64,000 bases of DNA from positions 352,001-416,000 of the forward strand of contig CAWHDT010000005.1 in assembly GCA_963828195.1 (NCBI GenBank). Direction: 5' to 3'. Source of the stretch: Candidatus Bathyarchaeota archaeon (GTDB lineage Archaea > Thermoproteota > Bathyarchaeia > Bathyarchaeales > Bathycorpusculaceae). Shown here piece after piece: positions 1 to 59,003 of the stretch. The position numbers and the translations under genes are program-made. The number at the start of each line of letters is the position of its first letter. Position 1 is the first letter of the stretch. A model generated the notes under the pieces. That model searched no databases and had not been told where the DNA came from. It saw nothing but the letters and a program-made list of their open reading frames with translations.

Positions 1-381
1 ATCGCGAAAAGCCTCAAAATATCTTTAGGAACAGTTCATAAGCGTGTAGAAGACTTAGAGAATAGAGGGCTCTTGAAGGGATACACCGCAGTTCTGGATC
101 CAGTCAAGCTTGGGTACGCAATGTCAACTGTTATTTTCATTCAAACTGAGGGTGGGCATCTTGATTATGTTGAAAACATTATTTCAAAGGCAGCTAATGT
201 AACGTCAATATACGAAATCACTGGGGACTTCGACTTAGTCATAGTTGCAAAGTTTAAAGATAGCGCCGACTTGAGTTCTTTCATCAAACAATTGCTAACA
301 ATTCGCCATGTCCGAAGAACCGTTACAGACGTAGCCCTCAACATCATAAAAGAAGAAGCCTCTCCAGCGGTGATTGGATAA
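1..381 (+). CDS. Lrp/AsnC family transcriptional regulator (5' truncated by window edge)
   Basis: Frame open from base 1 (IAKSLKISLGTVHKRVEDLENRGLLKGY = HTH), followed by a RAM domain (YEITGDFDLVIV ... RRTVT). Confidence 0.9.
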   Translation: MAKSLKISLGTVHKRVEDLENRGLLKGYTAVLDPVKLGYAMSTVIFIQTEGGHLDYVENIISKAANVTSIYEITGDFDLVIVAKFKDSADLSSFIKQLLTIRHVRRTVTDVALNIIKEEASPAVIG

Positions 382-778
382 AATGAATATTCAAAATAAA
401 TGATAACAAAATTTATGAAACGATGTGAAAAACCTGAAGAACAACTGCAACCTTCAACTCTCAGGCTTGCCCTAAAATGGGTAGAGTCTTAACAGCTAAC
501 TCAAACGAAATTTTTCGACAAAACTAGCTCGGTTTGCTACCGTTGGGATTGCCAAAGACCAATGGATGATCAAGCGGAAGTCTCCCTTTTTTATGAGAAA
601 AACGAACCAGGGCATAGAAAAATGGCCTGGCGAAGTTGTTTCGGTGAATTTAGCGGCATTACCTCCGAACTCCTTTTTTACAACATTGCCTTGAATGAAA
701 TACTTCCAGTGATAAATATGATAAAAATTTATTTCATGCTAACAATAAGGCTGCCAAATGATTCACTATTCATAATTA

Positions 779-817
779 TTCTTAATATTTGTGAACATTT
801 CTCAAATCGTTTTATAT
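779..817 (+). promoter_or_regulatory. Operator + TATA box, copy 1
   Basis: TTCTTAA-TAT-TTGTGAA-CA, 13 nt, TTTATAT; same architecture at five other promoters. Confidence 0.7.
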
Positions 818-869
818 TCTTATCCTAACACTCAGATTTCAGAGCAAACAAAAAATAGGATGAAATGGC

Positions 870-995
870 ATGTTGGATTTGGAAACTCCATTATTGGCGC
901 GTTTAAGCTCGTTCACCTTACCCTTCATGTTTACGGGGTATGACAGTTTGTGCATGCAACAAGCAATAAGAGCAACATCCGGCAAGGTGGATTAA
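870..995 (+). CDS. Small ORF, 41 aa (MLDLETPLLARLSSFTLPFMFTGYDSLCMQQAIRATSGKVD), paralog of 3080-3178
   Basis: Follows operator/TATA copy 1; aligns at nucleotide and peptide level with the ORF at 3051-3178 (-). Confidence 0.45.
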   Translation: MLDLETPLLARLSSFTLPFMFTGYDSLCMQQAIRATSGKVD

Positions 996-997
996 AC

Positions 998-1177
998 GTG
1001 TATAGTACGATAATTTTGGATTGCCAAACCAAAACAGCCTTCTCCTGCTCGGAGGACTGCATCGCTTTCAAAACATGCACTGCACGCAAGAAGCGTCCAC
1101 CAATCCGCTCTCGCAGACATTTAGTAGTCATTGAAGCTCCAACCGAGAAAACGAGAAAAAACAGGCTGAAAATCTAA
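998..1177 (+). CDS. Small Cys-rich basic hypothetical protein, 59 aa
   Basis: GTG start after GGTGG; four Cys (C-x7-C-x3-C-x5-C) then a Lys/Arg-rich tail. Confidence 0.4.
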   Translation: MYSTIILDCQTKTAFSCSEDCIAFKTCTARKKRPPIRSRRHLVVIEAPTEKTRKNRLKI

Positions 1178-1211
1178 CAAACAAATTAACTTATGGAAGA
1201 GTAAAAACGAA

Positions 1212-1337
1212 ATGAAAGTTGTTGCTGCATGGAGCGGCGGAAAAGACAGTTGCTACGCGTACTATTTGGCAATGCAACAAGGCCACGAGGTAATCAACCT
1301 TTTAATATATGAGCTTAATACGCTTCAAACTTATTAA
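1212..1337 (+). pseudogene. N-terminal fragment of a diphthamide-synthase-like (Dph6/MJ0570) PP-loop ATPase
   Basis: MKVVAAWSGGKDSCYAYYLAMQQGHEVINLL then a stop after 41 codons; SGGKDS PP-loop. Confidence 0.75.
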
Positions 1338-1403
1338 GAAGACAGATTTAAATAAAATTGCAGGTGAGATTCACCTCATCATTCAAAGGGGTCTTTGGGC
1401 TTT

Positions 1404-2962
1404 TCAACATTTGATTGGCGACAGACCAGTAACCTCATAAAGCTTCTTCATGTCTATATTTGCTCTTACGATTTCGGCTAACTTATCCAAATTTTCTTCC
1501 CAGATCTTCTGAATGTTTTCTTCACGGTGAAAACTTGTCTTTAGCTGTTTTTTTCTAAGAGAAACCCAACTAAAGCCCGCCTTAGCGGTGGATCATCGAA
1601 GAGACCGTGAAGATATGTACCAAAGATAACGCCGGCATTATCACATGCGCCGTCAAGTCTCTCGAATGTGTTGTCGTCACGCTTTACTACCTTAAAGATC
1701 GGACGGGCTTTTTCGCCTAGTACAGTTGAACCCATATGGATTTCGTAACCCACAATCCTTTGCCCCCTCACTTGATCGAATATATGGCCCGATCCTATTA
1801 TCTCGGCCTCAAGCTGATTGGTGGTCTTGCCATAGAAATCGAATTTTGTTGAGACGTCAAGCAGCCCTAGCCCTCTAATAGTTGTGGGAAGGCCACCTTC
1901 AATTCCCTTTTCATCCACCAGCTCTTTACCGAGCATCTGGAATCCGCCACAAACACCAATCACTGGAACACCTTTCCCCGCAAGGTCAACGATTTTTTCT
2001 GCGAACCCAGACTGTTTCAGCCACAGAAAGTCTTGGATAGTGTTCTTGGTTCCAGGTATGACAATGGCATCCGGCGAGCCCAATTCCCGTGTTGACCCGA
2101 CAAAGTTCACTTTTACGTTTGGTTCGATTTCTAACGGGTGGAAATCCGTGAAATTTGAAATCATGGGCAGACGGATAACGGCAATTTCGACATTTGTCCC
2201 AGTGTGCGCAACAGTTTTTTCCATTAGTCCTATTGAATCTTCATCAGGGAGGACAAGTCCTTCAATACGAGGAATTGCTCCAACTATGGGCCATCCAGTT
2301 TTCTCTTCGATGATTGAAGAGCATGGCTTGAGAAAATCTTTTCGTCCCTCCCATTTATTGATTATCACTCCTTTGATTCTGTTTCTGCTGTCTTCGTCAA
2401 GCAACTCATGGATGCCGACGACGGAAGCCATAGCCCCTCCTCTGGCGCAGTTTATATCCGCAACCAATAAAACAGGAGCCTCAGCTATTTCTGCCGTCTT
2501 CATGTTAACAACGCTTACATTAAAGTAATCGTCCGTGGGGCATCCCGCTCCTTCAATGACTACTACGTCAGACTCCGACTTCAGTCGCTCAAGGGATTCC
2601 TCAATCACTTTGGTCAAAAGCGCAGCAAATTTTCCATGCTGCCAGTAGTCATCAACCGCGACATCGCAGTACGGCTTTCCGTGAATTATCAACTGAATGT
2701 CTTTTCCTATTTCCTTCGGTTTCACTAGGATCGGGTTCATGTCAACAGTGGGTTCTACGCAGGCGGCCATTGCCTGCAGAACTTGGATTCTGGCCATTTC
2801 GCCGTCTTTGGCGACGAAGGAATTTAGGGACATGTTCTGCGACTTGAATGGGACGACCTTGTACCCATCTTTGGCGAAAATTCTGCATAACGCTGCAACT
2901 ATTATGCTTTTCCCAACTTGGCTTCCGGTACCTTGAATCATTAGAGTCTTTGCTTTCTTCAT
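1404..2962 (-). CDS. cobQ: Cobyric acid synthase, with a frameshift in an A7 run near the 3' end
   Basis: MIQGTGSQVGKS, PFKSQNMSLNS, ISNFTDF, PGTKNT, GVCGGFQMLG, GTYLHG. The ORF stops at 1541 but the typical C-terminal helix (LDKLAEIVRANIDMKKL) continues in another frame to 1404. Confidence 0.9.
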
Positions 2963-3079
2963 TACTAAACCCCGTTCGGTATACTAAACACCTTTTCTAC
3001 ATAACCTTTGAACTTCTACATAGAATTGGCAACCAAAACAATCGTGCTATTTAAGTCAAGCCTCTATTGATCTTTACTC

Positions 3080-3178
3080 TTAGAACTTGTTGCACCCGAA
3101 CGAACTCCTATTCCTCATGAATGTAAAAGGTGTGGTAAACAAGTCTGGACCTGCGCATACAAAGATTCCCAAATTCAA
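3080..3178 (-). CDS. Small ORF, 32 aa (probably frameshifted; alternative frame ends at 3051), paralog of 870-995
   Basis: TTG start after GGTGA; LNLGIFVCAGPDLFTTPFTFMRNRS; shifted frame gives VQQVLRVKINRGLT. Confidence 0.4.
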   Translation of the reverse strand: MNLGIFVCAGPDLFTTPFTFMRNRSSFGCNKF

Positions 3179-3232
3179 CTGTCTTTCACCCAATTTTTTG
3201 TTTTGGCTCTAAAATTAAATTGATATTTCATT

Positions 3233-3271
3233 ATATAAGGTGATTTGAGAAATGTTCATAAATATTAAGAA
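3233..3271 (-). promoter_or_regulatory. Operator + TATA box, copy 2 (upstream of small ORF and cobQ)
   Basis: Minus strand TTCTTAA-TAT-TTATGAA-CA, 13 nt, CTTATAT. Confidence 0.7.
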
Positions 3272-3593
3272 TAGTTAAACGATCAAACACCATTTTAAAG
3301 ATTATTTGAATCAACATCTATGTTGCCTGCAACAATTCCCTATCCGACTTGACTTCTCTTGTTGAGAAAAAAATAGGAAAAGTCATAAGGCAATAAGCAA
3401 ATGTAGCTAAAAACATAGTTGTGCATAGTTTGACTAAGGATACTGGTTTCTTAAATCATTTTTCAAAACCTGAACGTGATGTAAATGTTTTCTTTTCCGG
3501 TAAAACTATCTTTAACGGTAATGCTTTTTTCATTTTTAATCAGTATAACTTTTGGAAGAAAACTAGAGTTTTTTTAAAAAAGAAAAGGGGGGA

Positions 3594-5201
3594 TTAAGTT
3601 TTTTTCCAGAACTTGATTGTTCTGGATTTGGTGGTTTTGGTCGCGGTTGTGTCATCTTCGTCTTTGCCTGGGAATGGGAACAAGCCAGAGGGCTTAGATT
3701 TTGAGTTAACGCGGAAATAGACCAAGCCTATTGCCAACCATATTGCGGTGCCGACTATAGCAAAGATACCTTCCGATGACGACGCCCCTCCACCAGCAAA
3801 GCTAAGATACACAATAGTAGCCATCATAACGGCGTTAGCAGCGAAGCCTGCAATTGGAACTACTTTGCGTTTGAAGATGTTACTGCGCTCTTTCGTAAAT
3901 GCGATCAGTGCCACGATGTTTGTTATTGCATAGAGCAGGAAGGTGCCAAAGTTTGATAGCAATGTGATTGATGTTAGGTTTGTGATTGTCAGCACTCCGA
4001 AAGATCCTATAGCTGCTGCAACAGCTGTCATTATCCAAATTCCAATCCCTGGAGTTTGGTATTTTGGGTTTAGCTTGCTTAGGTGATACGGTACTTCAGT
4101 GTCTCGGCTGATTGCGTAGGTTACTCTAACTCCGGTGTTCATGCACGCAAGGGTAGTGCCTAATATTGCAGCGGCCACAATCGCAGCTATTATTAACTCC
4201 AGTGTGAATCCGTTGCCGCCGAGAAATACGTTTCCGAGGTTGCGAACCATATCGCCGATGGGGGCGCTTGAGACTGCGGCAGCGCTAAATCCTCTGTATA
4301 CTTGGCCATTTTGCGTTATGGTGTAGCTGCTGTTCATCCAAGCTTCAGCGCCGAAGTACTCGAACAGATACGCGAAAAGACCTTGGATAACTAGCGATAG
4401 TATGATTGCTTTAGGAACCGTCTTAGGATCTTTGGCTTCTGCGGTGTATGCTGTTGCGGATTCGAATCCGACTAGTACTAAGATAGCGATGGTCGCTTGA
4501 AATAGCACAGTGCTAATGTCATGAGGTGTAACTATTCCGCCTAAGCTCGTGAACGTGAAGCTTACGTGTTGAGGGTTGGTAAAACGGAATGCTAATGCCA
4601 TGCCGGTGATAACGACAAGCATACCGATTTGAACTATGTTGAGGAGCAGGTTTGTTTTTGTTGATCCTTGAATTCCGCGGTAAGCTATCGCGCCTGTGAC
4701 AACAGCAAATAAGCAAGCGATACCAATTTCGCCTAAGGGTGAAATGCTGAAGCCAAGTACCGATAAAATCCATGTGAGCAGGATAGACATAGCTGCAACC
4801 ATGACTCCAGGGTAGACCCAGTAGTAGAGGTGAGAAATCCAGCCGACACCGAACTTTGCGTTTCTCGCTGAAGTGTTGCTTGCACCGTTGTCTAGCAAGG
4901 CTCTTTGAGCAAAGTAATACGAGCTGCCGGGACCTGCATCAGGGTAACGCCGAGCTAGCCACGAATAAGACGCGGCAGTTAGGAACGCCAAAATTAATGC
5001 TAATGTAAGGCCAAAAAATATGTCGTTGGCGGTTGAAGCGCCAGACGGGGTGGTCTGAGCTGCGTTTATCTGGAAAGTGAGCCACAAGAACGCTCCTGGA
5101 GCTATTAAGGCCATGGCGTTTATCGTTATACCGCCTAGGCTGAGAGTTTTTTTCAATTGAGTTTTGTTTTGCGTCTGTGAACCTGTTGAATCAGTAGAGA
5201 T
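3594..5201 (-). CDS. APC-family amino acid/amine permease (start ATC 5201 or TTG 5156)
   Basis: About 12 hydrophobic helices; NAMALIAPGAF, GPGSSY and GFESATAYTAEAKDP motifs. Confidence 0.9.
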   Translation of the reverse strand: MSTDSTGSQTQNKTQLKKTLSLGGITINAMALIAPGAFLWLTFQINAAQTTPSGASTANDIFFGLTLALILAFLTAASYSWLARRYPDAGPGSSYYFAQRALLDNGASNTSARNAKFGVGWISHLYYWVYPGVMVAAMSILLTWILSVLGFSISPLGEIGIACLFAVVTGAIAYRGIQGSTKTNLLLNIVQIGMLVVITGMALAFRFTNPQHVSFTFTSLGGIVTPHDISTVLFQATIAILVLVGFESATAYTAEAKDPKTVPKAIILSLVIQGLFAYLFEYFGAEAWMNSSYTITQNGQVYRGFSAAAVSSAPIGDMVRNLGNVFLGGNGFTLELIIAAIVAAAILGTTLACMNTGVRVTYAISRDTEVPYHLSKLNPKYQTPGIGIWIMTAVAAAIGSFGVLTITNLTSITLLSNFGTFLLYAITNIVALIAFTKERSNIFKRKVVPIAGFAANAVMMATIVYLSFAGGGASSSEGIFAIVGTAIWLAIGLVYFRVNSKSKPSGLFPFPGKDEDDTTATKTTKSRTIKFWKKT

Positions 5202-5328
5202 CTATCTTCCCTCCTCTGAGTGGTAAGCTGGAAATAGTGGAAAATATTTTTTTGCCTTTTTTAACGAGTAGAGTGTCGGGCTTTCTGCTTGATTTGTTTA
5301 CATTTGGAGATTCCATTCTCTTTTTCAT
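5191..5328 (-). CDS. Upstream small basic ORF, 45 aa, overlapping the permease start
   Basis: ATG about 45 nt after the TATA box; MKKRMESPNVNKSSRKPDTLLVKKGKKIFSTISSLPLRGGKIDLY. Confidence 0.3.
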   Translation of the reverse strand: MKKRMESPNVNKSSRKPDTLLVKKGKKIFSTISSLPLRGGKIDLY

Positions 5329-5371
5329 CTAGTAACACCGAACTTTTAGTCAATAAAGCAAGTCCAGCGAA

Positions 5372-5410
5372 ATATAAACCTAATTAAGATTTGTTCATAA
5401 CTTTTATGAT
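5372..5410 (-). promoter_or_regulatory. Operator + TATA box, copy 3 (permease promoter)
   Basis: Minus strand ATCATAA-AAG-TTATGAA-CA, 13 nt, TTTATAT. Confidence 0.75.
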
Positions 5411-5840
5411 AAACAAAAATAATGTTCAATTAAAATAATTTATATTAGACATTTGGCTGGTAATTGCCGCTTTTCTTTGTCACCTTGGTTTGAAACATTT
5501 CGTTGGTGAAGCAGGCTATCGCTCATTTATGAGTTCTTTGATCGGTCAAGGTATTGAAAGTCATCAAGTTGACGTTTGGCAAAGAGGTTGCAAAGAACTT
5601 GTGCCTCTTAAAGGGATAAATCAAATAATGTTGGTAGTGCAGTAATCACAATGAGTTGTTCTCCGTCCGCCGTCTGGAGAAAAATCAAATTTAAGACACC
5701 AGTATCAACTTTGAGCTTTGGGACGGCCAATGAGGTTTTCTGGGGTGTCCAACACTTTCAAGATTTCGAGGGAGAGTTATGATAACGACAATCAAACATT
5801 TAATTGGCTTAAACTACGGTGCGGTGCTATATGTTTCTGT

Positions 5841-8621
5841 TTAAGTGTGGTCGTGCATTTTAAGCATTTCAGGACTGGTTTTAGTGAACTTGCGGCTGAA
5901 GAACTTTCTTATTTCCTCTGCGCAAACAACGATTACTGCTAGTGATACTAGAAATGCCCAGTTGCTGAGGGAGAGAGCAGTTGTTGTGAAGATGTGCTGC
6001 ATAAAAGGAACATAGATGAGTAGTGAGAGGATTCCGATTTGTGCAGTTATGCCGAAGATTATCCATTTGTTTGTTTTCAAGCTTGTTTTAAAGATTGATT
6101 GCTTGCTGGTTCGACATGCTAAGACATTGCCTGCTTGAGCTACTACTATACCAGCAAAAGTCATGGTTACACCTTTGGCGTAAACTCCGCTAGTATAAAA
6201 TGAACTGGTACTTGTTAAGACCATTCCAAAGTGCCATCCACCCGCAATCCAAGCGTTAAGGCACCCAATCATAGCTCCTGTAGCAATGATAACCCCGACG
6301 AACACCGAACGAAGTAGAACTTTACGGGTAAACAGTCTCTCCTTGATGCTTCTGGGTGGCTCTTGCATAATCCCTGCTTCAGGTGGTTCACGGCTTAAAG
6401 CCAAAGAGGGAATAACATCAATCGCAAGGTCAATGGCTAAAACTTGGGGCACAAGCAACGGCAAAGGAATACCTAAAACGGCGAACAATATAAACGGAAT
6501 CAGTTCAGCCCAGTCATGCGAAAACACATAAACAATAAACTTACGAATATTTTCATAAATTGCCCTCCCAGACTCAATGGCTTTCACAATGGATGCAAAG
6601 CTATCATTGAGCAAAACAATGTCGGCGGCTTCACGAGCAACATCAGTACCTGACGCCCCCATGGCAACACCGATGTCAGCTTCCTTAAGCGAAGGCGCAT
6701 CATTTGCTCCGTCACCAGTAACCGCAACAATTTCTCCGCCCTTTTTGACCACTGTAACTATACGAAGTTTCTGTTCAGGTGAAACACGAGCAAAAATCAC
6801 GTTGCCTTTGCGAACTTCATCTACGATTGCTTGGTCGCTTAAATCATCCAAGTCCACCCCGCGAATAATCTGATGACGTTCCTGGTCGACGATTCCAACT
6901 TCTTGAGCAATAGCCTGAGCGGTTGGACCGTAATCCCCCGTGATAATGACGGTTTTCACTCCTGCTCGCTTTGCCTCCAAAACGGCATCTTTAACTTCTA
7001 TTCGTGGAGGATCACGCATTGCGGCCAACCCTACAAAAATTAGGTTTTTTTCTACTTCATCTTTGATGTATGCGCTTTTGGGGATTTCCTTGTATGCTGC
7101 GGCAATGACGCGCAACCCCTCAGTGGCAAACTCATGAATCTTAGCTTCAATAACCTTAATGGTCTCTTCGTTTAATTCTTCAACTTTATCATCAACAAGC
7201 ATTTCGGTACAGATGTCTAAAATGTTTCTTGGAGCACCTTTTGTGTAAATGCAAACGTCACCGTTCATCTTATGAACGGTGCTCATTCGTTTTCGCTCAA
7301 AACTGAACGGTAAAACATGCACAATTGGTTTCTCTTCTAAAGCATTTTGAACGTTCACATTCGATTTTAGCGCAGCAACAAGTAAAGCGCCGTCAGTTGG
7401 GTCACCTATCACACCCCAATTTCTGTTTCTATCTGAAGGAGGATCAAGCTTTGCTCCGTTACAAAGTGCAGTAATCTCAATAAGCTTTTCCAGAGAGCCC
7501 GTTTGCCCCTCTTGTAGTGGCTGACCGTTTTTGGTGAAATCGCCTTCAGGTTTGTAGCCTAAGCCCGAAACGTCCACGACAGAATCGTAAACCCACAGCT
7601 TGTTTACAGTCATTTCGCCCTTCGTTATTGTGCCAGTCTTATCAGTGCAGATTACTGTAACGCTGCCTAAGGTTTGCACAGCTGATAACCGCTTTACCAA
7701 AACGTTCTGTTTTACCATTTTTAGAACGTTGATGGCTAAGGCGCTTGAAACGGTGACTTGTAAACCTTCAGGAACGCAAGCCACCATTACACCAATCATG
7801 AAGAAAATGCCTGTAGCTAAAGTAACATGTAAGAAGAAAAAACTAAAGACAAAAAATATCGTACCCACTGCAACAGCGATTATGAAATCATACTTTGCTG
7901 TTAAAGTGATTTCTTTCTGGAGCGGGCTTTCTTCTTCATGAATTGTCTGAGTTAAACTGGCGATTCTTCCAAACTGGGTATTCATTCCTGTTGAGTAAAC
8001 AACTGCTTTTCCTTGACCTTTGGCGACGCTTGTACTCATGAAAACGAGGTTTGGCGAATACAAGTACGTTTTCTCAGCTGTGTTAACGACCTCGGCAACA
8101 CGCGGTTGCGGTTCCGACTCACCTGTTAAAGGAACGTTATTGGTCCATAAGTCAAAAGCTTCAATTAAGCGTGCGTCCGCCGGTACACGGTCGCCTTCTT
8201 CCAGAGATATAATGTCCCCTGGGACAATTTCTCTGACTGAGATTTTTTTATGTTCTCCGTCTCGGATTACTTTGGCAAACTCGGGCATCCAGCTTTTGAG
8301 GGTTGCCATAGCTTTTTCTGCACGGGACTCTTGAAACATGCTTACAAAAATGTTTACAAAAACAACTGCAAGTATAATTAAGGCAGTTTCTAGACTGCCG
8401 CTTATGTAAGATAAAACGCTTGCAACTAGCAACAAAATGCCGAAAAGGTCGCGAAGGTGATGGATAAATTTGTGGATAAAAGGTATTTGCCTTTTTTCGG
8501 AAAGTTGGTTGTAGCCATATTTCGTCAGACGAAGTTTTGCCTCGTCGCTTGACAGGCCATTGGGTGATGTCTTTAGGTCGTCGAAGACCTCGTTAATTGG
8601 CAAAGAAGCAGCTTTCTCCAA
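5841..8621 (-). CDS. Cation-transporting P-type ATPase (type II, IIC-like)
   Basis: TGES, CVPEGL, DKTGT, KGAP, TGDGANDAP; M6 LAIDLAID resembles Na/K-type pumps. Confidence 0.92.
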   Translation of the reverse strand: MEKAASLPINEVFDDLKTSPNGLSSDEAKLRLTKYGYNQLSEKRQIPFIHKFIHHLRDLFGILLLVASVLSYISGSLETALIILAVVFVNIFVSMFQESRAEKAMATLKSWMPEFAKVIRDGEHKKISVREIVPGDIISLEEGDRVPADARLIEAFDLWTNNVPLTGESEPQPRVAEVVNTAEKTYLYSPNLVFMSTSVAKGQGKAVVYSTGMNTQFGRIASLTQTIHEEESPLQKEITLTAKYDFIIAVAVGTIFFVFSFFFLHVTLATGIFFMIGVMVACVPEGLQVTVSSALAINVLKMVKQNVLVKRLSAVQTLGSVTVICTDKTGTITKGEMTVNKLWVYDSVVDVSGLGYKPEGDFTKNGQPLQEGQTGSLEKLIEITALCNGAKLDPPSDRNRNWGVIGDPTDGALLVAALKSNVNVQNALEEKPIVHVLPFSFERKRMSTVHKMNGDVCIYTKGAPRNILDICTEMLVDDKVEELNEETIKVIEAKIHEFATEGLRVIAAAYKEIPKSAYIKDEVEKNLIFVGLAAMRDPPRIEVKDAVLEAKRAGVKTVIITGDYGPTAQAIAQEVGIVDQERHQIIRGVDLDDLSDQAIVDEVRKGNVIFARVSPEQKLRIVTVVKKGGEIVAVTGDGANDAPSLKEADIGVAMGASGTDVAREAADIVLLNDSFASIVKAIESGRAIYENIRKFIVYVFSHDWAELIPFILFAVLGIPLPLLVPQVLAIDLAIDVIPSLALSREPPEAGIMQEPPRSIKERLFTRKVLLRSVFVGVIIATGAMIGCLNAWIAGGWHFGMVLTSTSSFYTSGVYAKGVTMTFAGIVVAQAGNVLACRTSKQSIFKTSLKTNKWIIFGITAQIGILSLLIYVPFMQHIFTTTALSLSNWAFLVSLAVIVVCAEEIRKFFSRKFTKTSPEMLKMHDHT

Positions 8622-8954: not shown

Positions 8955-9287
8955 TTAGCTTAAGGGAACGCTGCCACTTTCGTGATGAACATTATATGCG
9001 GCTTGTAGCAATCGATTTACACGACAAAGCTCAGGATAGATTTTTTTGTATTCTTCCGATGCATAGTATTCTATTTCACTGGGATAGGCCTTTGCATGTT
9101 GATTTATGTATTTCAGTGCTTCGTGTATGTTCTTGAATTCCAAGTTGCTCATCTTCCAATTTAATGGACATAAAATGGGTTTCTTGTATCAGACTTTGAT
9201 TTTGAGTTCTAACTTGATGCTATAGGCTATAAAGGCAATTGAACCGATTATCGCGGTTATTGAAGCTATATCAATTATTCCAAACAT
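8955..9287 (-). pseudogene. Probable membrane-anchored small protein split by a frameshift (32 aa 9189-9287 + 65 aa 8955-9152)
   Basis: MFGIIDIASITAIIGSIAFIAYSIKLE hydrophobic segment; a 1-nt deletion near 9207 would join it to SKSKSDTRKPILCPLNWK-MSNLEFKN. Confidence 0.45.
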
Positions 9288-9330
9288 ATTTTCACCGTTT
9301 TACTTCTCACTAAGTTAGTTGCTTAGTTAA

Positions 9331-9369
9331 ATATAAATGCAGTTGTGATTTGTTCATAATTTTTCATAA
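9331..9369 (-). promoter_or_regulatory. Operator + TATA box, copy 4
   Basis: Minus strand TTATGAA-AAA-TTATGAA-CA, 13 nt, TTTATAT. Confidence 0.7.
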
Positions 9370-9580
9370 ACACTCGACATGCGTCTAAACTATAACAAGA
9401 AAAATTTTTATGAAATAAAGCATTAAAGCGCGCTTGTTGATGTAACTAAAAACGGAACCGTGTTTTATGCTGCGGAAGTACTTGAGCGTACAATCAAACT
9501 AAACAGTTAGCTAACTAATACATTAAGATGCGGTTGCCTGTCCATATTTTTCGGAGCATTACTTTACAAATTTTTTATTT

Positions 9581-9619
9581 TTCATAATTTTTATGAACAA
9601 ATCTCAATTACGTTTAAAT
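9581..9619 (+). promoter_or_regulatory. Operator + TATA box, copy 5 (glnA promoter; perfect palindrome)
   Basis: TTCATAA-TTT-TTATGAA-CA, 13 nt, TTTAAAT, about 50 nt before the glnA ATG. Confidence 0.8.
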
Positions 9620-9670
9620 GTGATCGTTTCTCCCTTTGTCTCAAAATATCTTGAATAAATGGTGAAGTGA

Positions 9671-11137
9671 ATGGAAAAAAATGATTCCGTGAAAAAAGCC
9701 ACAGAGAGCCTAAAAACCAACAATGTTAGGTGGGTGCATTCCGCCTTCGTTGATATTCGTGGAATACTGCAAGACATGGTGCTCCCGGCAAGGGATTATC
9801 TTAGCGGCGAAGCATTTACTGCAGGAGTGGGTTTTGACGGTTCTTCTGTTAGAGGCTTCAAATCCATTGAAGAATCAGACATGATTTTCATGCCTGACGC
9901 AAAAACCCTATCAATAATGCCTTGGGTCACCGATGAAAAGCAAAAAAGTGCTATAATTCTCGGAGACGTCTACGAAGCATTCGGGGGAAAAGAGCCATCA
10001 GTCGTTGACCCAAGAAGCTTTGCAGCAAAAAGAGCCGTAGCAGAAGCCAAAGCAATGGGTTACACAGGATTCTTCGCTCCCGAACTGGAGTTCTTCGTCT
10101 TTTCCTCAATTGACCCAACTAAACTCACTTGGGATCTTTGGGCAGCTCCAAAAAGTGGCGAAGGAGACGCGTGGGGAGCCCCAAGAGTGGTACCTCAGTC
10201 ACCAGAAATTACGCCAGGTAATTACGTGATAAGACCAAAGGAAGCATACTACAGAACCCCGCCCGAAGACACAACCGTCGAATTCAGGAATGAGGTTTCG
10301 CAAGTCCTAGAAGATGACTTTGGATTAACCATTGAAAAGCATCACCATGAGGTAGCCACCGTTGGTCAAGTGGAAATTGACTACAAATACGGAGAACTCT
10401 TAGATACGGCGGATAGGGCGATGTACTACAAATTTGTTGCCAAAAACATCGCTCACAAACATGGCTTAATTGCAACTTTCATGCCAAAACCAGTTTACCT
10501 TGACAATGCAAGCGGGATGCACGTACACCAGTCGATATGGTCTGGAGGAAAAACCGCCATGTACGATGAAGCAGACGGATACGCTGAGCTAAGCCAAACT
10601 GGAAGATACTACGTTGGAGGCCTTTTGGAGCATGCAAAAGCCTTAACCGCGGTCTGCTGCCCAACGGTAAGCTCCTATAAGCGTCTTGTACCAGGTTTTG
10701 AAGCGCCGATTTACGTAGTTTGGTCTAGACGTAACAGGTCAGCATTAGCCCGCATACCAATGTACTACAAAGGACCAGAGTTTGCAGCACAAAAAAGAGT
10801 CGAGTACCGAGGAGTAGACCCTTCATGCAACCCCTACTTGGCGTTTGCATGCCTCTTGACGGCCGGGCTTGATGGCGTCAAAAAGAAGATAGACCCCGGC
10901 GACCCAGTTGACGAAGACATCTACAAGTTATCTCCACAAAAACGCAAATCCCTCGGCATCAAAGAACTCCCAACCACGCTTAAGGACGCATTGGAAGAGC
11001 TAAAAAGCGACGAAGTACTTCAAAAGGCACTTGGAAGCCACATATTCGACGCCTTTATAGATCTTAAAACCAACGATTGGAACCAGTACTGCCTCTACGT
11101 GTCACCATGGGAGATAATGAAATACCTTGACTACTAA
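9671..11137 (+). CDS. glnA: Glutamine synthetase type I
   Basis: FDGSS, ESDM, PELEFF, HHEVA, TFMPKP, SGMHVHQS, SYKRLVPGFEAP, RNRS, NPYLA. Confidence 0.97.
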   Translation: MEKNDSVKKATESLKTNNVRWVHSAFVDIRGILQDMVLPARDYLSGEAFTAGVGFDGSSVRGFKSIEESDMIFMPDAKTLSIMPWVTDEKQKSAIILGDVYEAFGGKEPSVVDPRSFAAKRAVAEAKAMGYTGFFAPELEFFVFSSIDPTKLTWDLWAAPKSGEGDAWGAPRVVPQSPEITPGNYVIRPKEAYYRTPPEDTTVEFRNEVSQVLEDDFGLTIEKHHHEVATVGQVEIDYKYGELLDTADRAMYYKFVAKNIAHKHGLIATFMPKPVYLDNASGMHVHQSIWSGGKTAMYDEADGYAELSQTGRYYVGGLLEHAKALTAVCCPTVSSYKRLVPGFEAPIYVVWSRRNRSALARIPMYYKGPEFAAQKRVEYRGVDPSCNPYLAFACLLTAGLDGVKKKIDPGDPVDEDIYKLSPQKRKSLGIKELPTTLKDALEELKSDEVLQKALGSHIFDAFIDLKTNDWNQYCLYVSPWEIMKYLDY

Positions 11138-12212: not shown

Positions 12213-13886
12213 ATGTGTGGAATAGTTGGGATCTTTAATTTGACTGAACCAGTCTCTAGTGCACGGGACAAGGCGCTTAGGATGGCTGCTAAGATAAGGC
12301 ATAGAGGTCCAGACTGGAGTGGCATTTACAGTGATGATAAGGCAATTCTTGCTCATGAAAGACTCTCAATCGTTGACGTTGAACATGGTGCACAACCCTT
12401 GTTCGACAAGCTTAATGGTAACGTTCTGGCTGTGAACGGCGAAATTTACAACCACTTGCTTCTTCGTAATGAATTGAAAAAAAACCATTTGTGGCAGACA
12501 AAATCAGACTGCGAAGTAATCCTGTATCTCTACGATGAGTATGGCCCAGAGTTTTTGAACATGCTAAACGGCATGTTTGCTTTCATCCTCTATGACAAGA
12601 CAAAAGGGCAGTATTTCATTGCGAGAGACCACATTGGAATCATTCCGCTGTACGTAGGGTGGAATAACAAAGGAACTTTTTATGTAGCCAGCGAAATGAA
12701 AGCCCTAAATGATTATTGTACCAATGTCAAAGAGTTCCCTCCGGGACATTATCTAAATGGTAAAGGGAAAGATTTCGTTAGGTGGTATAAACCTGAGTGG
12801 GCTGAGAAAATTCCAACAAAAAAACTTGTTCTTCCAGACTTGAGAAAAGCATTGGAGAAGTCGGTGAAAGGACAAATGATGTCGGACGTGCCCTACGGCG
12901 TTCTTATCTCGGGCGGACTCGATTCTTCGCTAATAGCTGCTATCGCTTCGAAGTTCAGAAAGAAGAGGGTTGAATCTGGCGACAAAGAGGAAGCATGGTG
13001 GCCACGTTTGCACTCATTCGCAGTGGGTTTGACGGACTCGCCTGACCTGAAATACGCAAAGAAGGTTGCCGACTACATTGGAACCGTGCATCATGAAATA
13101 ATTTTCACTATACAGGAAGGTTTTGACGCGATAGAGGATGTAATCTACCATTTGGAAACATTTGATGTTACCACTATTCGTGCTGCTACACCGATGTATT
13201 TGATGGCTAGAAAAATAAAATCTATGGGTATCAAAATGGTCTTATCCGGTGAAGGCGCAGACGAAGTATTTGGCGGATACCTGTATTTCCATAAAGCACC
13301 AAATAAACAGGAATTCTACGAAGAAACAGTAAGAAAACTATTCTTGCTAAGCAAATATGATTGCCTGCGAGCAAACAAAGCAACCGCTGCTTGGGGCGTT
13401 GAAACACGGGTGCCTTTTTTAGATAAGGAGTTTTTGGATTTTGCCATGGGCTTTGATCCACAAGAGAAAATGTGCTCAGGTGGCAAAATCGAAAAATATG
13501 TGTTGAGAAAAGCGTTTGAAGGCTACATTCCTGACGAGATTCTTTGGAGACAAAAAGAGCAGTTCTCCGACGGCGTTGGCTACGGATGGATAGACTACCT
13601 CAAAAAATACGCCGAAAGCGCAGTAACAGATGCAATGATGGCGAACGCTAAACTTAAGTTCTCTACACAAACGCCATCATCAAAAGAGGAATATTACTAC
13701 AGACAGATATTTGACAGCTACTTTACATGTCCCACTGCCGCATTAACTGTTCCTGTGGGTCCAACAATTGCCTGTTCCACCCCAACGGCCTTCAGATGGA
13801 GCAAAGAATTTGCAAAAATGGCCGACCCATCAGGCAGATCCGTCAAAGAACACAACCAAACATTAACCGAAAACAAGAAACAATAA
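12213..13886 (+). CDS. asnB: Asparagine synthase (glutamine-hydrolysing), bacterial AsnB type
   Basis: N-terminal MCGI, HRGPD, HERLSIVD, NGEIYN, SGGLDS, WWPRLHSF, SGEGADE, WRQKEQFSDGVG. Confidence 0.96.
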   Translation: MCGIVGIFNLTEPVSSARDKALRMAAKIRHRGPDWSGIYSDDKAILAHERLSIVDVEHGAQPLFDKLNGNVLAVNGEIYNHLLLRNELKKNHLWQTKSDCEVILYLYDEYGPEFLNMLNGMFAFILYDKTKGQYFIARDHIGIIPLYVGWNNKGTFYVASEMKALNDYCTNVKEFPPGHYLNGKGKDFVRWYKPEWAEKIPTKKLVLPDLRKALEKSVKGQMMSDVPYGVLISGGLDSSLIAAIASKFRKKRVESGDKEEAWWPRLHSFAVGLTDSPDLKYAKKVADYIGTVHHEIIFTIQEGFDAIEDVIYHLETFDVTTIRAATPMYLMARKIKSMGIKMVLSGEGADEVFGGYLYFHKAPNKQEFYEETVRKLFLLSKYDCLRANKATAAWGVETRVPFLDKEFLDFAMGFDPQEKMCSGGKIEKYVLRKAFEGYIPDEILWRQKEQFSDGVGYGWIDYLKKYAESAVTDAMMANAKLKFSTQTPSSKEEYYYRQIFDSYFTCPTAALTVPVGPTIACSTPTAFRWSKEFAKMADPSGRSVKEHNQTLTENKKQ

Positions 13887-14078: not shown

Positions 14079-14321
14079 CTACATCGGTAATAGCACAATG
14101 GAGGTTTCTGTTCGGATGACGTTGGGGTCTTTTTCAATTATTTTGTAAACGACTTGGTTTATGTCTTCAAGTTCTGGAGCTTCCAAAATTATTATTGCGT
14201 CGTATCGACCGAAGATGGCATCCGCAGATAATATGCAGGTTCCTTTGACTTTGCCTTTTATTCTTTTAACGACTTCTAATGATGTACCTGGTTTGGTGCT
14301 TAATAATATGTAGGCTTTCAA
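14079..14321 (-). CDS. Stand-alone Lrp/AsnC ligand-binding (RAM) domain protein
   Basis: 80 aa, KAYILL ... IFGRYDAII ... IRTETSIV; no HTH. Confidence 0.85.
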   Translation of the reverse strand: MKAYILLSTKPGTSLEVVKRIKGKVKGTCILSADAIFGRYDAIIILEAPELEDINQVVYKIIEKDPNVIRTETSIVLLPM

Positions 14322-14419
14322 TTTTTTTTACCTCTTCGTTTTTAAATACCTGATTAAAGAATAAAGTAAGTAATCTTTTTTCCACACATATAAATCTTGT
14401 TTAGACATATGTTTAACTT

Positions 14420-14458
14420 TTAAGAATAAATATGAACAAAGCACAACTATATTTAAAT
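14420..14458 (+). promoter_or_regulatory. Operator + TATA box, copy 6
   Basis: TTAAGAA-TAA-ATATGAA-CA, 13 nt, TTTAAAT. Confidence 0.65.
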
Positions 14459-14501
14459 TCAGCTATACATCCATCTCATCATAAAATAAAATGGTGAAAA
14501 A

Positions 14502-14561
14502 ATGTTTGGAATAATTGATATGGCTTCAATAGGCATGATCTTAGAACACAGGGGGGATTAA
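14502..14561 (+). pseudogene. Truncated paralog of the MFGIID small membrane protein
   Basis: GGTGAAAAAATGTTTGGAATAATTGATATGGCTTCAATA nearly identical to the reverse complement of 9259-9296; stops after 19 codons. Confidence 0.55.
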
Positions 14562-29890: not shown

Positions 29891-30415
29891 CTAATGAATG
29901 GAAGCAACGATGGCAGTTACGGTTCCTTGAATATGTGGAACTTCTTTCTGTATTTTTAAAACAAGTCGTTTGAGATCTTCCTTGTCGCTTGCTTTTACCG
30001 CGCATATTACGTCGTATGGTCCGAATACCGTATCAGCGGACAAAACATTGGGAATACTTTGAAGCTCTTGTTGGACCACTTCAATATTTCTAGGCTGGGT
30101 ATTGAGGAAGAGAAATGCGTATGGCTCCTCCGTGAGCGGCTTGCCTTCGGATATAACAATGAGAGTTTGCGTTTTCTCAATCAGTGGTTCTTGCGGCGTT
30201 ATTGCTCTAATAGGATTGAACCATTTCTTAATGAATTCGTCAAGATCATTAAAATGCAATTGAACCAGAATGTCAACGGGGCCAAAGAGCAAAAAGACAT
30301 CCTGCATTGAAAGACCCATTTTTATTAGCTCATCTAAAACTGTATTGATTGCCAACTCGTCTAAAATTGTGTTAAAAACGCCTGTTTTACACGATAAAAT
30401 CATGTAAGCTTTCAT
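29891..30415 (-). CDS. Tandem Lrp/AsnC RAM-domain protein
   Basis: Two repeats (FGPVDILV; FGPYDVIC); no HTH. Confidence 0.8.
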   Translation of the reverse strand: MKAYMILSCKTGVFNTILDELAINTVLDELIKMGLSMQDVFLLFGPVDILVQLHFNDLDEFIKKWFNPIRAITPQEPLIEKTQTLIVISEGKPLTEEPYAFLFLNTQPRNIEVVQQELQSIPNVLSADTVFGPYDVICAVKASDKEDLKRLVLKIQKEVPHIQGTVTAIVASIH

Positions 30416-45518: not shown

Positions 45519-45594
45519 GCTGGGGTGGCCGAATGGTTCAGGCGACAGCCTGCAGAGCTGTTATATATGGGTTCAATTCCCATCCCCAGCTCCA
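45519..45594 (+). tRNA. tRNA-Cys(GCA)
   Basis: Acceptor GCTGGGG/CCCCAGC, anticodon arm ACAGC-CTGCAGA-GCTGT, TTCAATT T-loop, U73, encoded CCA. Confidence 0.95.
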
Positions 45595-48088: not shown

Positions 48089-48769
48089 ATGCGACTTGGG
48101 GTTTTGTTTTCAGGCGGCAAAGACTCAACAATGGCGCTTCACTTAGCTAAGGAAAAAGAAGAAGTCAAGTGCCTCATTACGGTGCTTTCGAAAAATAAAG
48201 AGAGCTTCATGTTTCATACTCCAAATATTGACGTAACGGCGCTTCAAGCACAAGCTTTAGGTCTGCCCCAGATAACAAGGACAACGCAGGGCGAAAAAGA
48301 GGAGGAACTCGCGGACCTAAAAGAAGCAATCGCTGAGGCTACAACAAATTTCCATATAGATGGCGTGGTAACGGGTGCAGTTGAGTCAGTCTATCAGGCT
48401 GAAAGAGTCCAGCGTATCTGCAATGACCTTGACCTTTGGTGCTTTAACCCTCTGTGGAAACACGACCAGAAAGCCCTCTTAGAGGAGCTTCTTGAAAAAC
48501 GTTTTAACGTGATTATTTCAGGAGTTTTTGCTTATCCTCTTGACGAAAAATGGCTTGGAAAACAAATCGACACCAAAATCATAGATAGGCTGGTGGACCT
48601 TCAGCAAAAGTATGGCTTAAGCCCAGCTGGAGAAGGCGGCGAAATTGAGACAACAGTTTTAGATGCGCCGCTTTTCAAAAAGAAAATCGAAGTCCTTGAT
48701 TACAGTGTCGAGTTTAAAGGAAATTCTGGAGTATTCATAATTAAGCGGTCACGGCTGGTTTCCAAATGA
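48089..48769 (+). CDS. Diphthine-ammonia ligase family (Dph6/MJ0570)
   Basis: FSGGKDS, SFMFH, GAVESVYQ, PLW, GEGGEIET. Confidence 0.9.
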   Translation: MRLGVLFSGGKDSTMALHLAKEKEEVKCLITVLSKNKESFMFHTPNIDVTALQAQALGLPQITRTTQGEKEEELADLKEAIAEATTNFHIDGVVTGAVESVYQAERVQRICNDLDLWCFNPLWKHDQKALLEELLEKRFNVIISGVFAYPLDEKWLGKQIDTKIIDRLVDLQQKYGLSPAGEGGEIETTVLDAPLFKKKIEVLDYSVEFKGNSGVFIIKRSRLVSK

Positions 48770-55068: not shown

Positions 55069-56349
55069 ATGGCGAAGTACGTGGTTGTTGGCGCTTCAGC
55101 AGCAGGCATAGGTGCAGTTGAAGCCATACGAGAAGTAGATCAAACTGGGGCCATAACCATAATCTCCGAGGAAACATGCGCACATTACAGTCGCCCAATG
55201 ATCAGCGACCTCCTGAGTGGAAAAGCAGACACCAAAAAAATGAAGTGCCGAAGCGACGAGTTCTGGAAAGAAAACAACATTGAAGCAATCATGGGCAAAA
55301 AAGCAACAGCCCTAAACTTAACTGAAAAAACTGTTCAGCTAGACAGCGGCGAAAAAGTTGCTTACGAAAAACTGTTGCTGGCGACAGGCGGCAAACCCTT
55401 TGTTCCAAAAATGGAGGGGTCAGATAAAGACGGCGTATTCACTTTCACAACGATGGGTGATGCGCAGCGCCTTGGAGCTAAGATTGACAGCATAAACGCT
55501 AAGTCAGCCATAGTTATCGGCGCTGGTCTCATCGGCATAAGCGTAACTGAAGCGCTCATGAAACGGGGTTTAAAAGTTACTATGGTTGAGTTGCAAGAGA
55601 AAATTCTCAGCTTGCTCTTAGACGCAAAAGGTTCAGACATCGTTGAAGCGGCTGTCAAGAAAGCAGGCGTCAACATCATAACTGGCCAGTCTGTCCAGAA
55701 AATAGTGGGCAAACCAGATAACGAAAGCACCGTCGGCGGAGTAACCTTAACTAAAGGCGACCAAGTACCCTGCGACCTCGTCATCGTAGCCATAGGTGTC
55801 ATTCCACGGACTGAGTTAGCGGTCGGGACAACGGTGAAAATCAACAGGGGGATAGTGGTTGACGACGCTATGCAGACAAATGTCCCTGACGTTTACGCCA
55901 GCGGCGATGTGGCTGAAGCGTACGATTTCATTTTGAATCAGAACCGACTTTTGCCCCTTTGGCCTCTTGCGGTTTTAGAGGGACAAGTTGCAGGGTATAA
56001 CATGGCGGGAAAGAAAACTGCTTACGCGGGCGGCACAAACATGAGCAGCCTCAAGTATTTCGGCATACCTATCGTCTCGATAGGCTTAGCTAACGCTAAA
56101 GAAGACCCAGCTTTGGAGGTGCTTGTTAAACAAGACATCGAACGCGGCATCTACAAGAAAATTGTCTTAAAAAACAACGTTATCGTAGGCTTAACGCTTG
56201 TTAACAGCATTGAGCGAGCGGGCATCTTGTTCTACCTGATAAAAAACGCGGTGAACGTGAAAAAATTCAAGCAGAAACTTCTCGAAGACGACTTCAGCTG
56301 GGCCACATTGCCGGCGGGTCTTCAGAGAAAAATGGGTGTGGTGCAATAA
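55069..56349 (+). CDS. NAD(P)/FAD-dependent oxidoreductase (NirB N-terminal/rubredoxin-reductase-like)
   Basis: GASAAG, YSRP, LLATG, GAGLIG, TNVPDVYASGD. Confidence 0.88.
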   Translation: MAKYVVVGASAAGIGAVEAIREVDQTGAITIISEETCAHYSRPMISDLLSGKADTKKMKCRSDEFWKENNIEAIMGKKATALNLTEKTVQLDSGEKVAYEKLLLATGGKPFVPKMEGSDKDGVFTFTTMGDAQRLGAKIDSINAKSAIVIGAGLIGISVTEALMKRGLKVTMVELQEKILSLLLDAKGSDIVEAAVKKAGVNIITGQSVQKIVGKPDNESTVGGVTLTKGDQVPCDLVIVAIGVIPRTELAVGTTVKINRGIVVDDAMQTNVPDVYASGDVAEAYDFILNQNRLLPLWPLAVLEGQVAGYNMAGKKTAYAGGTNMSSLKYFGIPIVSIGLANAKEDPALEVLVKQDIERGIYKKIVLKNNVIVGLTLVNSIERAGILFYLIKNAVNVKKFKQKLLEDDFSWATLPAGLQRKMGVVQ

Positions 56350-58999: not shown

Positions 59000-59003
59000 A
59001 AAT

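Follow-up and report, generated by a model that had tools for sequence, protein, structure and literature searches.

The 64,000-nucleotide (nt) stretch of a Candidatus Bathyarchaeota contig analysed here (CAWHDT010000005.1, positions 352,001 to 416,000; hereafter the window) contains, on the two sides of a cobQ gene, two inverted copies of a short genetic element, copy A at 773-1030 on the forward strand and copy B at 3277-3020 on the reverse strand. Our best explanation, which we consider reasonably likely when taken as a whole, is that A and B are ancient copies of one conserved cassette that have since diverged, A being worn and B broken. The cassette would begin with an archaeal promoter that bears an operator, followed by a brief, conserved 5' untranslated region (UTR), a small open reading frame (ORF) of about 40 codons, termed sORF1, and the start of a second one, termed sORF2. 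The two copies and the genes next to them are the following (L001 is a related locus described below).

773 to 822, forward strand: promoter A, with the half-site TTCTTAA, the core TGAACATTTCTCAA (792-805) and the TATA box TTTATATT (811-818).
838 to 869, forward strand: inferred 5' UTR of A, with the conserved AGAGCAAACAAAA (841-855) and a Shine-Dalgarno (SD)-like AGGATGA (857-863).
870 to 995, forward strand: sORF1-A, 41 amino acids (aa), an intact family member that has degenerated in this genome; ATG at 870, stop codon at 993-995.
998 to 1177, forward strand: sORF2-A, 59 aa with four cysteines; GTG start (TTG in L001), SD AAGGTGG at 984-990.
1212 to 1337, forward strand: truncated PP-loop ATPase gene, a 41-aa piece with the N-terminal 31 positions of Diphthami_syn_2 (Pfam, E 1.7e-7).
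1541 to 2962, reverse strand: cobQ (cobyric acid synthase type), downstream of copy B; Pfam GATase_3 (4.6e-56), CbiA and AAA_26.
3020 to 3054, reverse strand: sORF2 relic in B, the first ~10 codons, with no start codon and a 1-nt gap.
3051 to 3178, reverse strand: sORF1-B relic, with CAG in the start column and a 2-nt insertion that leaves two frames, 3178-3098 and 3095-3051.
3184 to 3277, reverse strand: promoter B and 5' UTR, with the core TGAACATTTCTCAA (3258-3245), the TATA box (3240-3233) and the UTR motif AGAGCCAAAACAAAA.

A preliminary description of this region had reported near-identical inverted promoters followed by homologous stretches, and this is borne out. The copies share a 30-nt block, TTCTTAATATTTRTGAACATTTCTCAAATC, which occurs exactly twice in the window (779-808, forward strand, and 3242-3271, reverse strand; 0.00 occurrences expected from 100 shuffles) and differs between them by a single purine (29/30 identical), whereas elsewhere they are ~65% alike. 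A repeat search of the window returned a 45-nt inverted repeat (773-817 and 3233-3277, 89% complementary) and two further pairs of inverted arms (846-865/3184-3203 and 955-975/3074-3094). With the promoter block excluded, 818-1020 aligned with the reverse complement of 3030-3232 at a score of 54, against 17.6 +/- 2.4 for shuffled sequences (maximum 32; 0/1000 reaching 54) and a best score of 26 among 562 other chunks of the window. The similarity extends to ~1030 in A and ~3020 in B and includes a shared 18-mer (1002-1019/3033-3050), while a blastn search for more copies in the window retrieved promoter parts only (5371-5424, 9330-9369, 9573-9607 and 14388-14438). The two ORFs first described are also present, that of A at 870-995 and that of B at 3080-3193, with a shifted frame (3095-3051) that reads V-Q-Q-V-L-R-V and continues to a stop.

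The argument rests on comparison with L001, a 21-kb locus on a Candidatus Bathyarchaeota metagenome-assembled genome (MAG) contig, which came from a scan of species-representative genomes for CobQ (59 loci), and with a protein family that surfaced only by exhaustive profile search, a single-sequence, word-based protein search with peptide A having given no candidate. A first profile, built from the two A peptides (window and L001) and run against 1.84 billion representatives, matched ten proteins at E<=1e-3, eight of them with 40-72 aa; the other two (2607 and 2462 aa) contain several short matched stretches. A second profile, of nine sequences, retrieved 58 proteins at E<=0.01 among 1875 candidates (P0012 and P0017, for example), none of which has a Pfam domain. 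Where names are given they read 'hypothetical protein', except for a 40-aa member with the JGI label 'ABC-type arginine transport system permease subunit', which we took as spurious. In a MAFFT alignment the methionine is in the same column in 54/58 members and the end in the same column in 45/58, and the best conserved stretch is L-P-F-I-F-M-G-Y-V-R-S-R-V-R-H-A-L (proline in 56/58, the leucine at the last position in 54/58). The best 19-aa Kyte-Doolittle hydropathy is at least 1.6 in 53/58 (median 2.19), the tail from residue 25 has a median net charge of +4, and the AlphaFold2 (AF2) model of the L001 copy (36 aligned rows) is a single helix, residues 2-37, with a predicted local distance difference test (pLDDT) value of 73. 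Typical sORF1 members have one hydrophobic helix followed by a basic tail, and look like membrane proteins.

Membership was assessed with a profile of 56 database members (leaving aside P0002, which has an internal repeat, the weak P0061, and the window and L001 copies), run on six-frame translations of the window and of all 59 CobQ loci. It scored 71.5 bits for L001 A and 53.8 bits (E 2.1e-14) for window A, and 13.9 bits (E 0.058) for window B, which is the top of the noise and leaves sORF1-B outside the family by this measure; beyond these three, nothing scored in the window or in the 58 other loci. A conceptual translation of B, in which X marks the break, has 14-18 identities to the members among its 12 best-scoring ones, and resembles A no more closely than it resembles canonical members. 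Pfam and NCBIfam have no family for window A, window B or sORF2, and for canonical members their best matches were UBA (17.9 bits, cut-off 22.4) and BcsF (12.6 bits, cut-off 56). A PDB sequence search with both profiles gave nothing below E 0.2, P0017 had no tblastn match among plasmids and phages, and its best ESM Atlas match, at 0.84, was under the 0.9 threshold, a 'transporter small subunit-like' cluster (0.79) being at chance level.

Over-long metagenome gene calls retain the translated promoter and UTR, and can reveal promoter-gene linkage without DNA. In all 27 members with an N-terminal extension of at least 26 aa, the extension translates the core promoter motif, 25-29 codons before the methionine: 17 read N-(I/T/N/V)-S-Q, nine read E-(H/Q/N)-F-S, from the following frame of the same DNA, and P0051 reads N-S-S-Q. 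The upstream half-site TTCTTA (as F-L) is present in 17 of the 18 calls long enough to cover five more upstream codons, and the UTR motif AGAGCAAAACAAA in 30 of the 32 members with an extension of at least 12 aa, where it is read in three frames (11, 13 and 6 members). Since the UTR motif appears in all three frames, insertions and deletions are tolerated in the UTR and spacer and not in the ORF. Promoter, UTR motif and ORF occur as one unit, in which the spacer may gain or lose any number of bases but frame and ends of the ORF stay the same, and this is the strongest coding evidence available from proteins alone. In the family the core motif lies ~75-87 nt before the start codon and is accompanied by the conserved UTR motif; window A has the same arrangement, with the AAC of the motif at 794 and the ATG at 870 (76 nt), and B has both motifs. 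These comparisons demonstrate, at the level of sequence, that sORF1 is a real, unannotated small-protein family with conserved start, stop and promoter, which recurs in many environmental archaeal sequences.

The preliminary description had postulated a family of about 42-aa peptides and proposed a search for homologues. The 58 homologous small proteins, each with the conserved promoter and with the LPF core as the most conserved motif, uphold this part of the proposal, but the Q-Q pair included in its signature is lineage-specific. This bears on the suggestion that the peptides are glutamine-sensing leaders, whose glutamine codons would control read-through into downstream genes for amide-forming enzymes. 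The Q-Q pair is common to window A and both B copies, in the aligned or the shifted frame, the downstream genes use glutamine or ammonia, and glnA is in the neighbourhood. Nevertheless, the family consensus at these positions is R (44/58) and H (47/58), with Q in 4/58 and 3/58, and therefore no basis is left for glutamine sensing; L001 A reads Q-R, and the family has no conserved run of glutamine codons. Moreover, B reaches the Q-Q pair only by frameshift and is more broken in L001, alternative hairpins are not outstanding in either copy (fold z-scores of -0.83 for A and +1.21 for B), and sORF2 plus 35 nt separate sORF1-A from the truncated PP-loop ATPase gene. We find a leader of this kind scarcely credible.

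Transcription of copy A would start near 842, judging by the distance from the TATA box, and its promoter is 92% identical to the L001 counterpart. sORF1-A is open over 41 codons in both genomes and differs at 23/126 nt, gap-free, and at 14/41 residues; where the two differ, L001 usually carries the commonest residue of the family, and therefore most of the change occurred on the window branch. L001 A is canonical (hydropathy 2.31, tail charge +3), whereas window A, which has charged residues inside the helix region, has a best 19-aa hydropathy of 0.85 and a tail charge of 0, and so lacks the hydrophobic helix and basic tail of the family. sORF1-A with its UTR (823-995) differs from L001 at 36/174 positions, faster than the synonymous sites of cobQ (39/327, p=0.012). 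For this window we infer that sORF1-A, still open, no longer encodes either hallmark of the family, helix or tail, and has probably changed at no less than the neutral rate. The constrained part of A, and its useful payload here, would be the Cys-rich sORF2.

The SD of sORF2 falls within the last codons of sORF1-A. Its core (996-1100) differs from L001 at 4/105 positions, more slowly than the synonymous sites of cobQ (p=0.014), and its tail has an in-frame 9-nt deletion in L001. Three database proteins are homologous to sORF2: two of them (43 and 40 aa) start at the same M-Y-S-T-I-I-L-D-C, and the third, P0062, is an 80-aa NCBI call from a third Bathyarchaeia MAG, 'MAG: hypothetical protein ABR909_01030 [Candidatus Bathyarchaeia archaeon]', that follows an alternative frame across sORF1 into sORF2. 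P0054 (104 aa) also runs from a degenerate sORF1 into sORF2. Three of the four cysteines align in every sequence, and the fourth is displaced by one residue in one homologue, P0064. sORF2 is probably a small Cys-rich protein, to judge from these alignments; its AF2 model was uninformative (pLDDT 44.9), and a predicted sORF1-sORF2 complex (L001 versions) scored 0.01, which gives no verdict. We also observed that the frame overlapping sORF1 and leading into sORF2 (862-1177) is open over ~101 codons in L001, and is closed in the window by a TGA at 941-943.

Peptide B, which the preliminary description treated as a second such ORF, does not hold up as a live gene, as both of its defects (no ATG and the 2-nt insertion) are common to the window and L001, and L001 B has an extra 1-nt deletion that leads to a stop. 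Their presence in two independent assemblies argues that the frame breaks are real. Of sORF2, B keeps only the startless, gapped relic of ~10 codons, and this marks the inner end of the duplication. Nevertheless, copy B (3030-3277) differs from L001 at only 15/248 positions, more slowly than cobQ synonymous sites (p=0.02), in accordance with a function as promoter or leader of cobQ, whereas the stretch between B and cobQ (2963-3029) differs at 8/68, the neutral rate. B appears to be a pseudogene copy, cut off inside sORF2, that serves as the promoter region of cobQ, and its survival may be due to a present use as regulated promoter and leader of that gene; the duplicated cassette would have recruited cobQ into the regulon. 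The CobQ proteins of the window and L001 are 97% identical (the next best relative is at 50%), with proportions of synonymous and non-synonymous differences (pS and pN) of 0.119 and 0.014 (pN/pS 0.12).

At ~1559 (1541-1600) the window cobQ has one base fewer than L001 and stops 52 codons early; the downstream frame is open to ~1395 and matches the longer, 529-aa ORF of L001. The early stop may stem from a mutation that occurred recently or from an error of the assembly. A 15-nt exact match joins the sORF2 tail (1122-1136) to the cobQ sense strand (2565-2551), both encoding V-V-I-E. We considered whether the region downstream of A might be a decayed 5' part of cobQ and rejected it: the match does not extend, 5/300 shuffles reach its score, and BLASTP gave E 18.

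Of the flanking genes first described, the Dph6-like remnant and CobQ are confirmed by Pfam, but sORF2 intervenes between peptide A and the remnant. The PP-loop ATPase gene is truncated in L001 too. A full-length Diphthami_syn_2 (Dph6-like) gene is present at 48089-48769 (forward strand), and the remnant at 1212-1337 is accordingly what is left of a second paralogue. The idea that the remnant was recently copied from the full-length gene was rejected, as there is no DNA similarity between the two. We also considered whether A and B derive by decay from the 5' end of the Dph6-like gene, a possibility raised by a shared TGCAACAAG, and decided against it, given that the scores of their alignments to 1150-1400 were reached by 84 and 106 of 1000 shuffles. 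The proposed link to amide-forming enzymes rests on this one locus and finds no support elsewhere. One form of it makes the peptides amidated substrates of CobQ or of the Dph6-like enzyme, akin to ribosomally synthesized and post-translationally modified peptides; adjacency, in this locus only, speaks for this idea, but the Dph6-like gene is truncated in both genomes, B is a pseudogene, and canonical members look like membrane anchors, which leaves it with a next to negligible chance.

The two cassettes and cobQ form part of a larger shared module. Window 764-3373 corresponds to L001 9591-12192 at 93.7% identity, from promoter A to 96 nt past promoter B, and identity just outside drops to 36% and 29%, with no other synteny between the 64-kb window and the 21-kb L001. 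In L001 the module has an Lrp gene and a nif-like operon at one flank and a tRNA-Arg gene (12386-12462) at the opposite one. Two histories would lead to this, a relocation of the module or a rearrangement of the region through recombination between cassette copies. The first possibility, in its strong form, would make the inverted repeats the termini of a 2.6-kb cobQ module, mobile or invertible, in keeping with the high identity between unrelated flanks, with an A-side boundary within 9 nt of the outer edge of the repeat, with the tRNA-Arg gene 194 nt away in L001 and with the distance to the next-closest cobQ. However, 764-3373 has no transposase, integrase or invertase ORF or Pfam domain, the arms are 89% alike over 45 nt and ~65% beyond, the B side runs 96 nt past the repeat, and no flanking direct repeats were seen by eye. 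In addition, the repeat is fully explained as a promoter that is also present at non-repeat sites, and recombination between cassette copies would yield the same picture. We consider such a mobile element unlikely.

The promoter of the cassette has relatives nearby. We were able to identify 11 exact sites for the core TGAACA-WW-(T/G)-C-W-Y-AA, six in the window (792+, 3258-, 5397-, 9356-, 9594+ and 14433+, all in the first 14.5 kb) and five in L001 (7722-, 9181-, 9263+, 9706+ and 12165-), and none in the other 58 CobQ loci. Every core site is 6 nt from a TATA-like box, mostly with TTCnnAA upstream; core plus TATA, with up to two mismatches, gave 5 sites against 0.01 expected. Besides the two cassettes, the features of the window concerned are these.

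1 to 381, forward strand: Lrp/AsnC-type regulator gene, its 5' end beyond the window; Pfam AsnC_trans_reg (2e-14) and HTH_24.
5371 to 5409, reverse strand: related operator and TATA box upstream of an amino-acid permease gene (3594-5156, reverse strand).
9330 to 9369, reverse strand: related operator and TATA box upstream of a 32-aa hydrophobic ORF (9189-9287, reverse strand).
9581 to 9620, forward strand: related operator and TATA box upstream of glnA (9671-11137).
14420 to 14459, forward strand: related operator and TATA box upstream of a 19-aa ORF (14502-14561).

The genes behind the operators are then, in the window, sORF1-A, B with cobQ, the permease gene, the 32-aa ORF, glnA and the 19-aa ORF, and, in L001, the nifH operon, an Lrp/AsnC gene, a 58-aa ORF, B with cobQ, and sORF1-A. 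In the L001 operon, a radical S-adenosylmethionine gene comes after nifH, together with two genes of the nitrogenase component-1 type and one resembling homocitrate synthase; in the window, Pfam also identifies two asparagine synthase genes nearby. The composition of these sets suggests that a common factor unites the operator sites in one regulon for nitrogen or amino acids. As its regulator we would look first to the adjacent Lrp/AsnC protein, a candidate by position only; the L001 Lrp gene, whose product is 48% identical to the window Lrp protein, is likewise beside the module and behind an operator site.

Several points weigh against the explanation preferred here, in which A and B are diverged copies of a coding cassette under shared control. 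The sORF-type sites carry ACATTTCTCAA and the glnA/nifH-type sites ACAAATCWCAA; a single regulator for both core types is an assumption, and a separate cobQ promoter within 2963-3029 is possible. The family statistics come from proteins alone, and frameshifted copies escape a protein search, which biases the start and stop counts; as to sources, the sole named one among the small proteins is that of the sORF2 homologue from a Bathyarchaeia MAG. In sORF1-A, the comparison with L001 gave a pS of 0.325 and a pN of 0.147 (pN/pS 0.45), the latter above the pS of cobQ. Over the first 34 codons of sORF2, the window and L001 differ by the start-codon change and three replacements, with zero other synonymous differences, and its conservation could therefore be at the nucleotide level. 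Finally, mismatches between A and B fall on the three codon positions in the numbers 10, 12 and 10 (26 positions each), so that the codon-position bias by which the preliminary description had proposed to recognize coding sequence is absent between the copies.

The last observation favours two other explanations, the first being purely neutral decay of a duplicated intergenic segment with neither family nor function. It would account for the missing bias, for the change of A beyond the synonymous rate, for the frameshifts of B and for the empty word-based search, but it leaves unexplained the 58 homologous small proteins with conserved ends and promoter, an operator 29/30 identical between copies otherwise ~65% alike, and the conservation of the sORF2 core and of B above the neutral rate. 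Neutral decay is refuted as a whole, and the chance that it is the full account is very small; it fits only sORF1-A and sORF1-B of this genome.

The second is a conserved non-coding RNA, either a small RNA (sRNA) or a cis-acting leader, in which the ORFs would be incidental. The promoter and the 5' UTR motif are conserved at the nucleotide level, the lack of codon bias between A and B is as expected of it, the non-coding B relic is conserved above the neutral rate, and nitrogen-regulated sRNAs are known in Methanosarcina. Nevertheless, the conserved RNA element that the preliminary description had left as an option was not borne out: the fold energies are no better than those of shuffled sequences (the z-scores given above), and the consensus fold of four sequences reaches only -12.95 kcal/mol over ~200 nt. 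With Rfam 15, the only match of the window at gathering score is a tRNA (45519-45591), and 600-3500 at E<=10 gave one chance match, inside cobQ. Furthermore, the ORF of the family holds to a single frame between a fixed start and a fixed stop, unlike the UTR, which moves through all three, and we regard an RNA with incidental ORFs as decidedly unlikely.

Additional observations concern the surroundings of the operator sites. The ORFs at 9189-9287 (reverse strand) and 14502-14561 (forward strand) are paralogous, small and hydrophobic, both start with M-F-G-I-I-D ~70 nt past an operator-type promoter, and have a D-I-A-S-like start as in some sORF1 members, with no family-profile score. An 80-aa stand-alone ORF (14079-14321, reverse strand), divergent from the 14433 operator, resembles by eye the Lrp/AsnC ligand-binding (RAM) domain, and a 174-aa protein (29891-30415, reverse strand) has an AsnC ligand-binding domain by Pfam, so that the window is rich in Lrp-type regulators (1-381, 14079-14321 and 29891-30415). 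In L001, the nif-like operon (130-7722) lies directly behind its operator and also contains genes for a CobW-like protein and an ATP-binding cassette (ABC) ATPase. Further along the window there are hydrogenase, heterodisulfide-reductase-like and NADH-dehydrogenase-like genes at 15781-40098 (NiFe large and small subunits, FlpD/MvhD, CCG-domain and Nuo51-type proteins) and a glutamate synthase set at 56349-59807; both are what is usual for the energy and nitrogen metabolism of Bathyarchaeia.

For the Bathyarchaeia, an abundant and uncultured group, we know of no experimental work on the regulation of nitrogen metabolism; the literature on small proteins and nitrogen limitation that we consulted made no mention of them. 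The cassette offers three testable objects for this group: a conserved operator-plus-TATA architecture common to glnA, nifH, the permease gene and several small ORFs; a widespread and unannotated family of membrane peptides, ~40 residues long and linked to one promoter variant; and a cassette of small genes that has decayed and apparently now serves an enzyme gene as control region. Canonical sORF1 would be a single-pass membrane peptide with its basic tail inside, made when the regulon is on, and may modulate a membrane component of nitrogen uptake or assimilation, a role that we propose by analogy and with low confidence. In a wider and rather doubtful version, promoter, UTR, sORF1 and sORF2 would constitute a portable nitrogen-responsive cassette, whose membrane peptide and Cys-rich partner act as a small-protein switch, controlled by a glutamine-sensing factor of the Lrp type, for the uptake or assimilation of nitrogen, while its duplicates wire genes (cobQ, and formerly the PP-loop ATPase gene) into the regulon and recombination between copies moves modules.

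Among known systems, bacterial small membrane proteins such as KdpF, MgtS and AcrZ have one helix and 30-50 aa, tune transporters or sensors, and are co-regulated with their target system; they belong to another domain of life and have no sequence relation to sORF1. Attenuators of the trpL type have a short leader ORF between promoter and biosynthetic gene, and B also lies between a promoter and cobQ. In contrast to them, the cassette has no regulatory codon run and no terminator or antiterminator folds, its sequence is conserved and membrane-protein-like, and it works with an archaeal transcription apparatus.

Glutamine-responsive regulators of the Lrp/AsnC type have been reported in archaea, namely Sa-Lrp (PMC3584215) and Grp (PMC2504300). 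Similarly, Lrp-type genes are found beside the cassette in both genomes, one of them behind an operator site, although their products share only the 48% identity given above and the operator, an AT-rich imperfect palindrome (TTCWWAA-N3-TTWWGAA), does not correspond to any published Lrp consensus that could be verified. In Methanosarcina mazei, the 23-aa sP26 is reported to enhance glutamine synthetase (bioRxiv 10.1101/2020.05.06.080432), and the preliminary description had compared the peptides to it as small enzyme regulators. The comparison is possible only in a general sense, as small proteins in an archaeal nitrogen regulon and by analogy: the target of sP26 is a soluble enzyme, whereas the hydrophobic helix in 53/58 sORF1 members argues for a membrane target, and the product looks like a membrane helix and not like a ligand of a soluble enzyme. 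The 61-aa sP36 of the same organism is described as a cytoplasmic protein that relocates to the membrane and binds AmtB1 and GlnK1 (PMC10714827). sORF1 is shorter (~40 aa) and a predicted integral helix, and the likeness is one of analogy; nevertheless, a small archaeal protein tied to nitrogen and acting at the cytoplasmic membrane on an uptake component is the working model that we would propose for sORF1.

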